Part shown: one piece after another, positions 31,044 through 39,307 of the stretch
Position numbering within the stretch: position 1 is the stretch's first letter
How the letters are laid out: every line of letters begins with the position of its first letter
Source of the DNA: a virus
Taxonomy: Duplodnaviria; Caudoviricetes
DNA: 64,000 nt
Virus record (IMG/VR): IMGVR_UViG_3300046820_001270
Span: 160,001 to 224,000 of that record
Strand: one strand, 5' to 3'
The notes under the pieces: generated by a model
The model's database searches: none
The model's input: only the letters and a program-made list of their open reading frames with translations
What the model was told of the DNA's origin: nothing
Position numbers and translations under genes: made by a program

Positions 31044-31045
31044 AA

Positions 31046-31443
31046 GGTGGAGACGAAGGGAGTCGAACCCTTGTCTTTCCTGTTCAACAATAAATGACTA
31101 CACGTTTATTCAATTGGTTCTCAATTGACAAATAGAAGGTTAATATCAGGAAACCATCAATACTGTTCCTAACCGGATTTTCAAGAGCCGTCAAGTTTGC
31201 TCCAACACTCTAGGGTTATGTTCCACCGAAAGGACTTCTGTTCCTAGGTTATATGTCCGTCGACCCGTGCGTAGAGGCTAATCTAATTAGGCTGCTACTT
31301 TAGAAGTTGCAAGAATACCTGCAATTTCCATTGTGTTGTAAACGTTGTCGTTTAATTTTCTTCACCGTGGATTTAAGTCATAGATGAATTCTGACTACGT
31401 GCCATTTACCCCTGATACCTGAAATCAAATCCAAGGCGTCCCC
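31046..31443 (-). ncRNA. ssrA: tmRNA; predicted tag (A)DNVYNTMEIAGILATSKVAA*
   Basis: GGGGACG/CGTCTCC acceptor stem with G3-U70; T-arm AAGGG-TTCGACT-CCCTT; internal ORF ending GCA GCC TAA. Confidence 0.93.
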
Positions 31444-33243: not shown

Positions 33244-34115
33244 GGCCGTATGGTTTTACATACATTCACCACCACTTTGTTTTTCTAAACAAAGAAAATA
33301 AAACTCTGAGAATACAAGTTTTAACAATCGACTTAGGAACATTATTTGTTTCTTTCCCTTTCCACAACCTTTTGAGTTGTACCGATCAATGACGGTCAAT
33401 TAGATTAACCAATCCTAAAGTCATCAGATACTCTTTTATTACTTATTACTCAACAAATCTGCCGACCTGTTTCAACCTTGCGGGTTTAGAGAACTTTCTT
33501 AAAAATCATATTGGGATTGAGTCCCTTTATGGCCGTGAACCCCTCACGACTAAGTAGTCACCTGTCTCCAATGACTGACGAACACTTTTTCTTGTTATAT
33601 TTAAGTTGTTAAACCGTAATTAACAAAATTTAGTTATCCGAATTGGGAAAGTAGTGGTTCGTCACCTAGCCAAGTTATCTTTTGAACAACTCGATACTAA
33701 ACTACTCTCTGAAGTGTCCCCACCTCCATATTTTTGGTTTCCTTCGAGATTAAACCCTTGGTAGGATTTATTCAAGGACACTAACAGCACCACCTGTTTT
33801 TTGTCATACCTTCCATCTTACGATGCTACGGTTTTAAGACCACCATTGTATTGAATTACGCAATAATAAAGTCGGATAACTATACTTCTTACATTAATTC
33901 TATGGATTATTCTTATTGATGTTCCCATCTCAACCAAACAACTCGGATTGCTTGGTCATCCAACCCTTTCGCTACGGAGTTACCCTCACTACTTCAGGTT
34001 AAATGATATTCCACTTGTCTACTCGAGATCCATTTCTGAATCCGCAACTTACCCCAACCAAGGGTTTGTCACTTTATCCCACTTTCGTGGTTTATTTTAT
34101 TGACTATAGACGGCC
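33244..34115 (-). ncRNA. Large structured RNA, ~872 nt, probably GOLLD-class
   Basis: No credible ORF; own promoter (TATCTTTG 34167-34174), boxA-like site and terminator; ends pair (GGCCGT/ACGGCC); many hairpins with GNRA loops; adjacent to tRNAs. The family name is an inference. Confidence 0.7.
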
Positions 34116-35663: not shown

Positions 35664-35809
35664 TTTTAAAATTTATTTTGAATGAGAATAATCAATAGGG
35701 ACAGTTCCTTCACTTCTGTCTTGTAACTCCGTACCAACTCAGCACTATTGATGTTTGATGGATGAAAAACATCTATTCTTCTTGTGGACTTCCATCGGAG
35801 TCCCATATC

Positions 35810-36040
35810 TTACAAAAATCTACTACCTTGTCTTCTTCTTGCTTCTTCAGCTTCTCTATACCAACGAATCCACGTTAATGCTACATCAATTGGTGCTAAG
35901 ACCCAAGCCATCATTATCACCATAATTGTATCTAACTCAGGTGAACCACCTGTTGGATCGTTAGAATACCTTTTGTTTAAATTTTTAAACAACTGGTATA
36001 AACAATAAATAATACAAATAACATAATAACCTAAAAACAT
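35810..36040 (-). CDS. Small membrane protein
   Basis: Two hydrophobic segments. Confidence 0.6.
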   Translation of the reverse strand: MFLGYYVICIIYCLYQLFKNLNKRYSNDPTGGSPELDTIMVIMMAWVLAPIDVALTWIRWYREAEEARRRQGSRFL

Positions 36041-36908: not shown

Positions 36909-36925
36909 TATCTAATATATATCGG

Positions 36926-36997
36926 TATTCCCGACGGGATTCGAACCCGTATTACCTCCGTGAAAGGGAGGTGACCTAACCCTTAGTCGACAAGAAC
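36926..36997 (-). tRNA. tRNA-Glu(UUC)
   Basis: Cloverleaf, anticodon loop CTTTCAC, T-loop TTCGAAT; GU-rich acceptor stem. Confidence 0.88.
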
Positions 36998-37021
36998 AAA
37001 TAATCACTCAAATGGGTATTT

Positions 37022-37118
37022 GTTATAGTATCACAATCGGTGCACTGTACTCTGGTTAATTACTCCGTCTGTACCCAACAGCTTTATGTTGGCTTATAAT
37101 TGGCTACTTTACTATAAC
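37022..37118 (-). ncRNA. Candidate small structured RNA within the tRNA array
   Basis: 9-bp closing stem GTTATAGTA/TACTATAAC; CCAACA/TGTTGG hairpin; GG-AGTAATTAA-CC loop. Confidence 0.45.
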
Positions 37119-37149
37119 TCACATTTTTATTTGTGATTAAAAAAGATCC

Positions 37150-37258
37150 CGTTTTTTTTCTACATTTAGCCCAAGCACCAGTAGGTCAGTGTTTTGGGTT
37201 TTGACGCGAGAAGTCTACAAGGTTTCCCCATTAGACCGTTACCACGGGCAAACTCTAC
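37150..37258 (-). ncRNA. Candidate structured RNA with a possible pseudoknot
   Basis: CCGT/ACGG, GTCTA/TAGAC and CCCAA/TTGGG stems; loop CTAC complementary to downstream GTAG. Confidence 0.35.
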
Positions 37259-37260
37259 AG

Positions 37261-37347
37261 CGGAAGCGTAGGGATTTGAACCCCAGATACCTTTCGGTAT
37301 GCCAGTTTTCAAGACTGGTGCAATAAACCGGACTCTGCCACACTTCC
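37261..37347 (-). tRNA. tRNA-Ser(UGA)
   Basis: Cloverleaf with long variable arm, anticodon loop CTTGAAA. Confidence 0.93.
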
Positions 37348-37348
37348 A

Positions 37349-37909
37349 TTATTTATTAGAAACAATATATCCATTATATTCCAATACTTGAATACATTTT
37401 TCTAAAAATTCTTCTACAGAAATGTCACTTTTCATTTTATTTATCGAAAAACTTATTAATCCCGCATTTTCTATAGTGTTTTCACCACCTTTAGATGCCG
37501 GTGTAATATGATCAATACTATATGATTTAGTCTCATATAAATTAATTGGTTCACCCGATAAATAACATTTAGGTTCGTTTCCTATTTTTAACAAAAAATC
37601 TCCTATATTAAAAGTAAGTTCAGGTTTAGTAATTGATATTTTTGAACCTTCCCTTCTTTGAAAATCTCTAACTTTACTGAGAACTCTTTTACCTAAATTA
37701 TTCCTATATCTAAAATCATATAGTTTTTTTTGTAAAATAAATTCAGGTTTAGATGTTCTTTTAATACTTCTATTTTTTGTTTTTTCTTTTTGGTTATCAC
37801 CCAAATAATATGAAATTGTCGATTTACTACAATTCAATTCTTTCATTATTTTATTATAGGTATAACCTTCTTTTTTTAATTCAATAATTCTATTTCCAAG
37901 CTCTGTCAT
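37349..37909 (-). mobile_element. Free-standing HNH homing endonuclease (HTH + HNH) inside the tRNA array
   Basis: CSKSTISYY HTH; CYLSG..IDHITPASKGGENTIEN...N.MK. Confidence 0.85.
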
Positions 37910-37984
37910 GATATTCTTTATATATAAATATCAGGTTCGAACTAAAAAGTTAAAAATCGAACTTCTTATTTCAAAGAACGTTTG

Positions 37985-38058
37985 CGGAACAGACGAGACT
38001 CGAACTCGCGACCCCGGCAGTGACAGTGCCGTATTCTAACCAACTGAACTACCATTCC
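37985..38058 (-). tRNA. tRNA-Asp(GUC)
   Basis: Cloverleaf, anticodon loop CTGTCAC. Confidence 0.93.
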
Positions 38059-38063
38059 TAATT

Positions 38064-38153
38064 ATCACATCAAACAGGGATTCTACTTCCCGCAGCACGA
38101 AATTGTATCTTACTTAGCCCTACGTTAGCGGTATGGGTACCTGAAGATATGAT
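38064..38153 (-). ncRNA. Candidate structured RNA
   Basis: ATCATATC/GATGTGAT and CAGG/CCTG stems; CCC-TAC/GTA-GGG hairpin; CCGC/GCGG possible pseudoknot. Confidence 0.4.
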
Positions 38154-38156
38154 TTG

Positions 38157-38232
38157 TGGGTGAGTTTGGATTCGAACCAAAGACCTAAAGTTTATGAGAC
38201 TTTTGCTCTAAAACCAGCTGAGCTACACACCC
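38157..38232 (-). tRNA. tRNA with CAU anticodon (elongator Met or lysidine Ile2)
   Basis: Cloverleaf, loop CTCATAA, no initiator features. Confidence 0.88.
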
Positions 38233-38256
38233 TATTAGTCTTTTCCTTACCTCTTA

Positions 38257-38317
38257 ATAACCACATTGCCATCCCGGTGTTACTGCCGGGTGCTTACCAC
38301 TTGCGTGGAGTGATTAT
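38257..38317 (-). ncRNA. Candidate 3-way-junction RNA (~61 nt)
   Basis: ATAATCAC/GTGGTTAT; CCAC-GCAA-GTGG; CCCGG/CCGGG. Confidence 0.5.
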
Positions 38318-38324
38318 CACGTTG

Positions 38325-38397
38325 CGCTCCCTGAGGGTCACGATCCCCCGACTTCAAAATTAACAGTTTTGCGCTCTACCAACTGAGCTAAGGAAGC
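38325..38397 (-). tRNA. tRNA-Asn(GUU) with atypical T-loop ATCGTGA
   Basis: Cloverleaf, anticodon loop CTGTTAA. Confidence 0.85.
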
Positions 38398-38483
38398 GTG
38401 TTTGATTCCAACCCAACTTAAGTTGCACCATCCGTGTCATGCACTGGTTAACAAAGTCCTCGTTGAGTTAGTTTCAAAAAGTT

Positions 38484-38666
38484 ACAGGTTTTTCGTACCA
38501 TCTATGTACATCATGTCCGAGACTGATTCATGAATCGGAGGTTACTTTTCGCTTAATGGTTAATTACTCCAACTTATAGTAACTCTACTCTCACCGTTCT
38601 ACATCTAGATTCAAACGGATAGTTGAGATTCATAGACAGTGGGGTCACACCACCGTCGTCACCTGT
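38484..38666 (-). ncRNA. Candidate multibranched RNA (~183 nt)
   Basis: ACAGGT/ACCTGT, TCTATG/CATAGA, GTTACT/AGTAAC, CCGTT/AACGG and TCCGA/TCGGA stems. Confidence 0.5.
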
Positions 38667-38668
38667 TG

Positions 38669-38741
38669 AGCCTAAGGTCAGATTCGAACTGACGACCTGC
38701 TGATTACAAATCAGCTGCTCTACCAACTGAGCTACTCAGGC
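38669..38741 (-). tRNA. tRNA-Thr(UGU)
   Basis: Cloverleaf, anticodon loop TTTGTAA. Confidence 0.95.
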
Positions 38742-38781
38742 TTATTTTCTACTATTTTATGTCAAAGAACCACTTATCTTA

Positions 38782-38812
38782 CAAAGATAATAAATAAATT
38801 CGGATATACAAA
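38782..38812 (-). promoter_or_regulatory. Internal Bacteroidota sigma70-type promoter in the tRNA array
   Basis: TTTG-N19-TATCTTTG followed by a boxA-like site. Confidence 0.75.
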
Positions 38813-38834
38813 ATTATTCTTAAATCTTTTTTTG

Positions 38835-38906
38835 AGGTCTCGGGTAGGGTCGAACTACCAACTTGAAATCCGTAGTTTCATGTGATCACCATTTCACCAC
38901 AAGACC
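38835..38906 (-). tRNA. tRNA-Arg(ACG)
   Basis: Cloverleaf, anticodon loop CTACGGA. Confidence 0.88.
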
Positions 38907-38913
38907 ATTTTAG

Positions 38914-38982
38914 TTGCGGGACCGGTAGTCGAAACCGGAAAAACACAGCTTATGAGACTGGTCGGGAACCCTCCTCCCCGCA
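38914..38982 (-). tRNA. Short-D-arm tRNA with CAU anticodon (69 nt)
   Basis: TGCGGGG/TCCCGCA acceptor stem, CTCATAA loop, CCGGT-TTCGACT-ACCGG; only 14 nt between acceptor and anticodon stems. Confidence 0.7.
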
Positions 38983-38986
38983 ATTT

Positions 38987-39060
38987 TGGATGTCCCTCGT
39001 GGATTCGAACCACAGCTAGATGGACCAAAACCACCTGTACTACCTCTATACTAAAGGACA
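38987..39060 (-). tRNA. tRNA-Gln(UUG), CCA encoded
   Basis: Cloverleaf, anticodon loop TTTTGGT. Confidence 0.92.
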
Positions 39061-39065
39061 ATATG

Positions 39066-39145
39066 TACCCAAGGTCGGACTCGAACCGACACGTCTCTCG
39101 ACACGGTTTCTAAGACCGCCGTGTATCCCATTCCACCACTCGGGT
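39066..39145 (-). tRNA. tRNA-Leu(UAG)
   Basis: Cloverleaf with variable arm, anticodon loop CTTAGAA. Confidence 0.92.
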
Positions 39146-39152
39146 ATTGTTG

Positions 39153-39224
39153 CACCCATGTAAGGACTCGAACCTTCATCTTCGGTTTTGGAGACCGACG
39201 TTCTACCAATTGAACTACACAGAT
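39153..39224 (-). tRNA. tRNA-Trp(CCA)
   Basis: Cloverleaf, anticodon loop CTCCAAA; wobble-rich acceptor stem. Confidence 0.88.
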
Positions 39225-39231
39225 ATGTTTG

Positions 39232-39307
39232 TCTAGATGGCTGGATTCGAACCAACGTGTTCTGCTTTCCAAAAGCAGCGAGAAAAGCCGGACTCCTCTA
39301 CATCTAG
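39232..39307 (-). tRNA. tRNA-Pro(UGG)
   Basis: Cloverleaf, anticodon loop TTTGGAA, C1-G72/A73. Confidence 0.92.

Follow-up and report, generated by a model that had tools for sequence, protein, structure and literature searches.

Conserved structured RNA elements between the tRNAs of a bacteriophage tRNA array

The locus described here lies in a stretch of 64,000 nucleotides of viral DNA (Duplodnaviria; Caudoviricetes), positions 160,001 to 224,000 of the IMG/VR virus record IMGVR_UViG_3300046820_001270, which is referred to as the window and supplies the coordinates used throughout. The window carries an array of transfer RNA (tRNA) genes on the minus strand, and several intervals between these tRNAs are occupied by additional elements, designated S1 to S5b (Table 1). 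Behind an AT-rich promoter spacer (38742-38833), the order of genes is tRNA-Thr, S5a, S5b, tRNA-Asn, S4, tRNA-Met, S3, tRNA-Asp. An earlier note on this DNA, made from the sequence alone, had proposed five structured RNAs interleaved with the tRNAs. Comparison with related phages confirmed that the spacers are conserved non-tRNA structured RNA elements on the strand of the tRNAs. All five proposed elements are conserved and real, and the count was too low, as a sixth element, S5b, had been overlooked. The five intervals hold, with the limits of S4 redrawn to those given in Table 1. The sequences flanking S1 (AAUCAC...GUGAUU) are conserved in 14 of 16 contexts, and the S1 unit may extend to 37001-37139, which would leave 3 nucleotides to tRNA-Glu instead of 24.

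Table 1. Positions of the RNA elements, loop palindromes and neighbouring genes in the window (nt, nucleotides; bp, base pairs).
Feature	Position	Strand	Description
S1	37022-37118	minus	97 nt; 9-bp terminal stem; GG-AGUAAUUAA-CC hairpin in common with S5a
S2	37150-37259	minus	110 nt; begins 1 nt after tRNA-Ser; three hairpins; A-rich tail
S3	38062-38155	minus	variable outer stem P0, 8-bp P1, 4-bp P2, 3-bp P3
S4	38233-38323	minus	10-bp closing stem; first hairpin variable in length and sequence
S5b	38398-38483	minus	86 nt; irregular long hairpin with invariant internal loops; between S5a and tRNA-Asn
S5a	38484-38667	minus	184 nt; starts at the base after tRNA-Thr; nine scored helices
S5a L4 loop palindrome	38561-38566	minus	UAAUUA; loop of P4b
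S5a L3 loop palindrome	38603-38610	minus	AUCUAGAU in the window; tip of the covarying P3a hairpin
tRNA array carrying the elements	36924-39307	minus	11 tRNAs by ARAGORN (default settings) and Rfam
HNH homing-endonuclease open reading frame	37349-37909		inside the tRNA array
AT-rich promoter/boxA-like spacer	38742-38833	minus	read from the sequence; not an RNA domain
tRNA-like gene, anticodon CAU	38913-38982	minus	weak D arm; ARAGORN at -ps80 only
GOLLD RNA	33303-33709	minus	Rfam RF02032, 298.5 bits
tmRNA (transfer-messenger RNA)	31045-31443	minus	found by ARAGORN/Rfam

The view that the spacers are neither tRNAs nor members of a known family was borne out. ARAGORN makes no minus-strand call in any of the five intervals, even at -ps60. 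Rfam gave no credible match in a 9.5-kb scan (E<=10), nor did three scans of small windows under more permissive filtering; the GOLLD model (RF02032) matched none of the spacers, and neither Rfam 15 nor the literature searched yielded a description of the six elements. The elements are also richer in GC, as had been suggested, with values of 0.38 for S1, 0.46 for S2, 0.43 for S3, 0.51 for S4 and 0.42 for S5a, compared with 0.19 in the spacer 38742-38833, 0.23 in the linker between S1 and S2 (37119-37149) and 0.31 in the window.

Homologues of all five spacers were found in related uncultured phage contigs. The 550-amino-acid protein encoded upstream of the array, used as a query, returned 55 syntenic IMG/VR loci; the 271-amino-acid open reading frame beside the array returned no relatives when used as a synteny query. 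Pattern scans retrieved 59 viral and 115 metagenome stretches with the S5a hairpin, at least 120 IMG/VR contigs with the S3 loop (17-base core), and 15 viral IMG/VR contigs with the S1 hairpin. Among cultured phages (INPHARED, 50,697 records), blastn found no match for S3 or for S5a with S5b; S1, S2 and S4 were covered in that collection by the whole-array search only, the listed hits of which fell on tRNAs. In a set holding one genome per prokaryote species, S5a occurred only in two short contigs binned into metagenome-assembled genomes, which gave no clue to the host. The closest relatives by the 550-amino-acid protein (L001-L009, 84-91% identity) carry zero tRNAs within 10 kb upstream and were hence of no use for comparing the elements; even closely related phages therefore differ in having or lacking the RNA island as a whole.

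The terminal stems and internal hairpins noticed earlier are maintained by compensatory changes in the homologues. Covariation, on which the earlier note had staked its proposal, is strong in S5a and S3 and clear in S2, S4 and S5b; it was tested against 500 shuffles and, for S5a, S3 and S2, also against slid partners. S5a is closed by stem P1 (ACAGGU/ACCUGU), which is followed by helices P2 to P6 with their sub-helices, and was described by a covariance model (R1) and an alignment fitted to that model (A8, 100 distinct sequences). In A8, 95.4% of positions in helices are paired and 28 of 42 pairs have changed on both sides, giving a covariation of 0.313 against 0.159 in shuffles (0/500) and at most 0.097 with slid partners. 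An independent run of MAFFT and RNAalifold found compensation in 22 of 37 pairs. A reading frame stays open through S5a in 0 of the 100 sequences. One pair of P2 (A8 columns 14-31, window ~38654 and ~38637) is GU in 56 sequences and UG in 41, and a Watson-Crick pair is never seen there, which suggests that the wobble itself is required. The adjoining S5b (55 distinct sequences) is 98% paired with 6 pairs changed on both sides, and its covariation is 0.169 against 0.090 in shuffles (0/500). Both S5b and S1 are missing from some phages that retain S5a.

In S3 the covariation is 0.489 against 0.173 in shuffles (0/500) and at most 0.095 with slid partners; its 84 sequences (76 distinct) are 97.3% paired, and 11 of 15 pairs have changed on both sides. 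The junction between P1 and P2 reads CCCAUAC and the return junction GGAGUAGAAUG, while P3 closes a near-invariant loop of 24 nucleotides (GGGCUAAGUWAGAUACAAUUYC). This loop probably binds a conserved partner. The CCC and GGG columns, a possible pseudoknot, are invariant. S2 has two invariant single-stranded blocks, AGUUUGCCCGUGGUAACGG and UUGGGCUAAAUGU; across 16 distinct sequences 98.7% of its cells are paired, 5 of 24 pairs have changed on both sides, and covariation is 0.209 against 0.114 in shuffles (0/500), with slid partners at or below 0.076. S4 has a second hairpin, CCCGG/CCGGG, with an invariant 8-nucleotide loop (CAGUAACA), and an invariant, purine-rich 3' tail of 25 nucleotides (38233-38257) that abuts tRNA-Met. 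Its 15 distinct sequences are 99.4% paired, with 4 of 21 pairs changed on both sides and a covariation of 0.195 against 0.123 in shuffles (0/500), and a reading frame stays open through 0 of the 15. Homologues of S1 (the 15 IMG/VR contigs together with metagenome loci) are ~98% identical across 11 variants; in the diverged copies L351 and L356 the terminal stem is kept through changes on both sides, which involve 9 of 29 pairs.

G-U pairs are common in these folds, and the RNA strand is therefore that of the tRNAs, as fits an RNA rather than a DNA-level signal. Read on the opposite strand, each G-U pair would become a C-A mismatch. It is highly improbable that the spacers are signals in DNA, decayed tRNAs or remnants of mobile elements, an origin that the HNH homing endonuclease within the array, the 9-bp terminal inverted repeats of S1 and its near-identical copies might otherwise recall. 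None of the folds is a cloverleaf, compensatory changes maintain them over 60-90% identity, and S1 occurs once per contig, mostly just ahead of tRNA-Glu.

The elements behave as cassettes. As had been proposed, they are packed closely on the tRNAs, with gaps of 0-8 nucleotides across related phages, and their neighbours differ from phage to phage: S2 follows tRNA-Ser or tRNA-Asp, S3 follows tRNA-Met, tRNA-Asp or tRNA-Gly, S4 precedes tRNA-Met or tRNA-Leu, and S5a is preceded by tRNA-Thr, tRNA-Asn, a Met-like tRNA or tmRNA. Among 96 distinct contexts upstream of S5a, a T-arm motif of a tRNA or tmRNA lies within 45 nucleotides in 64. In 17 of the contexts, S5a has a promoter of its own, a TAnnTTTG box ending 2-9 nucleotides before it, which we take to be the -7 promoter element of Bacteroidota. 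With one or the other feature just upstream, the first base of S5a would therefore be set by tRNA processing or by initiation. The same kind of box is found in the window ahead of tRNA-Thr, where the spacer 38742-38833 (fold z +0.11) contains the -7 box TATCTTTG (38782-38789, plus-strand letters) followed by the boxA-like GUUCUUUGACA (38760-38770); because of this succession the spacer is regarded as a promoter and not as an RNA domain. A second boxA-like sequence, GUUCUUUGAAA, stands at 37966-37979, after tRNA-Asp. In some relatives (L084, L093, L071) S5a directly follows the 3' end of tmRNA or a short terminator/promoter. In others (L219, L190, L138, L144, L146), where no tRNA or promoter precedes S5a, a conserved unit ending ...CAACGUAGRAAAAAGUAAAGAUA stands 40 nucleotides upstream of it and may be a further RNA element.

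This placement bears on whether the elements act only in cis, as folded spacers that aid the polycistronic tRNA precursor (landing sites or rulers for RNases, insulators, protective 3' structures) and are then degraded. Elements flush with tRNAs would suit such a role, as would the invariant tail of S4, which makes up the 5' leader of the tRNA that follows, and the A-rich end of S2. A search of the window for targets complementary to the S4 tail, the sole conserved single strand tested, also found none of 10 nucleotides or more. One and the same element, however, serves different tRNA neighbours; S5a is preceded by a promoter of its own in 17 contexts and in some loci (e.g. L071) has no adjoining tRNA called by ARAGORN; for ~60% of the copies of S3, the 60 nucleotides upstream are free of tRNAs; and long invariant single-stranded loops are not needed in a mere spacer. 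A purely cis-acting role is thus unlikely.

The spacers are probably separate small-RNA genes in a phage tRNA operon, at least six in number (S1, S2, S3, S4, S5a and S5b), which would be excised by way of tRNA processing, with S5a perhaps pairing with itself. The elements would be transcribed from the minus strand together with the tRNAs, from Bacteroidota-type promoters with the -7 box TAnnTTTG, and each would be closed by its own terminal stem. Cleavage by RNase P at the 5' border of the tRNA that follows would generate the 3' end of an element, and removal of the 3' trailer from the preceding tRNA would generate its 5' end; where no tRNA precedes, the start of transcription would define the 5' end. 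Trailer removal would probably be due to RNase Z or an equivalent, because the tRNAs of the array lack an encoded CCA (as read from the sequence for tRNA-Thr). The products are predicted to be stable, folded RNAs acting in trans. Enzymes of tRNA maturation are known to set the ends of neighbouring non-tRNA RNAs, as in the tRNA punctuation of animal mitochondria, in plant tRNA-snoRNA (small nucleolar RNA) units and in MALAT1-mascRNA. Those examples are eukaryotic or organellar, whereas the present case would be a bacteriophage operon with a predicted route of processing.

The earlier note had also offered ribozymes, decoys for anticodon nucleases, sponges and Y-RNA-like molecules as possible identities, and none of these found support. 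Small conserved multi-helix RNAs with invariant junctions at processing borders could in principle be self-cleaving ribozymes that cut the precursor themselves, and the UGAUG...CGAAA arrangement of S5a loosely recalls a hammerhead core. As read from the sequence, C3 and A9 are missing from this core, and four Rfam 15 scans matched no hammerhead, twister, pistol, hatchet, hepatitis delta virus (HDV) or other self-cleaving family, even at E<=10 and in small windows. Enzymes of tRNA maturation already account for both ends, and self-cleavage is very unlikely. A part as decoys or sponges, whether for host defence factors directed against tRNAs (anticodon nucleases, tRNA-cleaving toxins) or for enzymes of tRNA processing, would be in keeping with RNAs of compatible structure that lie between the tRNA genes of a phage with tmRNA and GOLLD as well. 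Yet no hairpin resembles an anticodon stem-loop, with a 5-bp stem and a 7-nucleotide YU-NNN-R loop including U33; the nearest candidates are the 8-nucleotide loop of S4 (CAGUAACA) and the P2 loop of S5a, UGURACC, which lacks U33. At -ps60 ARAGORN finds nothing tRNA-like in the elements, the T-loop consensus is absent, and a decoy or sponge function is accordingly a minor prospect, slightly behind a role confined to cis. With the Y-RNA-like YrlA (RF02553) the elements share the form of a small structured RNA with closed ends; the tRNA-like domain of YrlA is absent from the spacers, none of them matches the model, and its sole match lies on tRNAs at 39183-39274, at 23.3 bits, the gathering score being 69.

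Beyond their helices, the S5a sequences contain two palindromic loops, L3 and L4 (Table 1). The aligned 6-mer of L3 in the 100 sequences is UCGCGG in 44, UCGCGA in 26, UCUAGA in 15 and GCCGGA in 11, with UGCGCG, UGCGCA, UCAUGA and ACCGGA seen once each. The pair at its centre takes the states GC, UA, AU and CG, the pair between positions 2 and 5 is CG or GC, and a flanking pair (A-U or C-G) extends the palindrome to an 8-mer in three types. Of the 100 L4 loops, 91 read UAAUUA, 8 read UAGCUA and one is odd. A 14-mer around L4 recurs in S1 (37053-37066), and the window has 2 copies of it where 0.03 are expected. In the diverged copy L351, the corresponding loop of S1 has changed from UAAUUA to UGAUCA. 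When L3 and L4 are scored for self-pairing (positions 1-6, 2-5 and 3-4 in A8), 93.7% of the pairs are standard, and cells with double changes number 27 against 10.5 +/- 2.5 in shuffles (0/500). Although the loop palindromes resemble type II restriction sites, and could on that account be taken for sites of protein binding or restriction, they vary and yet stay complementary, the reverse of what a site recognised by a protein would do.

Loops of this kind are familiar from the dimerisation initiation site of HIV-1 and from the pRNA of phage phi29, where exposed loops are self-complementary (6 nucleotides) or complementary to each other and variants keep the pairing; the loop pairs of phi29 pRNA are non-palindromic and the RNA is located on the packaging motor. 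S5a resembles the HIV-1 site in that an exposed hairpin loop carries a 6-nucleotide self-complementary sequence whose variants keep pairing. Apical-loop self-complementarity of at least 6 nucleotides and variants with paired changes were both found, those of L4 on few events. The molecules and their settings are otherwise unrelated, and nothing connects S5a to packaging. No consistent second site for the L3 palindrome was found within 3 kb, and adjacent bases cannot pair within one strand; the partner would therefore be the same loop of another molecule. Nearest-neighbour energies of the self-duplex range from -5 to -13 kcal/mol for the L3 variants and amount to -0.4 kcal/mol for UAAUUA. Judged from the sequences, self-association of S5a through a kissing loop at L3 is close to an even proposition, and self-association through L4 is rated lower. 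S5a would pair loop-to-loop with a second copy into a dimer or higher oligomer, and S1, which has the same L4-type loop, may pair with itself likewise or join S5a. As for such hetero-kissing, S5a is absent from the records in which the S1 loop has changed, but their completeness is no more than 40-46%.

Two other palindromes, of 12 nucleotides each (38525-38536 and 38414-38425), are not conserved in homologues. Mimicry of tRNA-Pro was also rejected: 13 nucleotides of L3 recur at the 5' end of the window's tRNA-Pro, yet the two do not covary across 35 phages. In these 35 related loci, which share S5a, tRNA-Pro(UGG) occurs in at least five versions with very different acceptor stems. Upstream of S5a in L100, L113 and L120 there are small hairpins, beside odd tRNA-like genes, with the loop AUUAAUUAC, which contains the UAAUUA palindrome; in L120 this loop stays UAAUUA although L4 of S5a is UAGCUA.

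A number of points weigh against separate, self-pairing small RNAs. Single-sequence folding shows the terminal stems with z values of -0.4 to -2.7, barely better than shuffles, and because it is unconvincing the case rests on comparison. Variation in S1 is almost nil, so its fold depends on the two diverged copies. In 12 of the 100 S5a sequences (one clade, one column off), L3 keeps only the 4-nucleotide CCGG. Pairing of L4 is doubtful, given the weak UAAUUA duplex and the frequency of AT-rich palindromes at 31% GC. The tree used for counting changes was built on ~200 columns and is poorly resolved, and independent events are few. A search for a helix between S5a and S5b found none, only isolated columns that coincide singly and never a run of pairs. 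Neither a partner nor a target nor a protein came to light, and any role is guesswork; the best guess is that the RNAs would bind or sequester a host factor from the sphere of tRNA or translation, alongside the phage tRNAs, tmRNA and GOLLD.

The six elements are new families of RNA in an arrangement of a known kind, the nearest precedent for which is RNAC and RNAD of phage T4. These two small RNAs of unknown role (species 1 and 2) are produced from the T4 tRNA region (PMC3014915). As in the present array, they are non-tRNA small RNAs from a phage tRNA cluster that contains a homing-endonuclease gene (PMC3014915; PMC2330249), and the elements described here likewise lie within the tRNA cluster of a phage and on the strand of its tRNAs. 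Homology was not found, as the blastn search of S3 and of S5a with S5b against 50,697 phage records, among which T4 is presumed to be included, returned no match. In contrast to T4, there are six elements rather than two, the host is of Bacteroidota type, covariation backs the folds, and one family is spread widely among uncultured phages. For RNAs of the RNAC/RNAD type, which have been without a function for decades, this larger and more varied set offers more ways of finding out what they do.

GOLLD and ROOL are a second point of comparison. They are encoded near phage tRNA islands and form RNA-only multimers through covarying kissing loops (bioRxiv 10.1101/2024.12.08.627333). The elements are similar as phage RNAs beside tRNAs, with a GOLLD gene in the same window, and differ in size (600-800+ nucleotides versus 90-185 here) and in the lack of any sequence or model match. 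GOLLD and ROOL are homo-oligomers, whereas self-association of S5a is suggested by its palindromic loops only. More tentatively, and somewhat short of an even chance, S5a and perhaps S1 could be a small RNA-only assembly unit, a cousin of the GOLLD and ROOL cages in which docking of L3 and L4 would yield symmetric dimers, rings or chains. It would share its phage RNA island with GOLLD and be produced together with the tRNAs, and the array could serve as a toolkit comprising six or more classes of phage RNA not described before, S3 among them. If S5a does self-assemble, quaternary structure built of RNA only would be found in small RNAs of 184 nucleotides as well as in giant ones. Phage tRNA islands are usually read as sets of tRNAs for codon usage or anti-defence, and the intervening DNA is ignored; in this phage it contains several undescribed conserved, folded RNA genes, among them a motif present in at least 120 uncultured phage contigs (S3) and an RNA with covarying self-complementary loops (S5a). 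The alignments and the S5a covariance model are now ready for use.

The surroundings of the array hold further features. The genes for GOLLD and tmRNA lie 3-6 kb downstream of it on the same strand, and the tmRNA has an unusual predicted tag that ends in KVAA. Between a radical-SAM gene and the 271-amino-acid open reading frame, the stretch 35700-36000 has a GC content of 0.35-0.41 in AT-rich surroundings and only short open reading frames, and may hold another RNA. The tRNA-like gene with anticodon CAU is missed by both ARAGORN at default settings and Rfam, and is kept in 27 related loci. It could be tRNA-Ile2 or a variant of elongator tRNA-Met, and in relatives it often stands directly upstream of tRNA-Thr and S5a.

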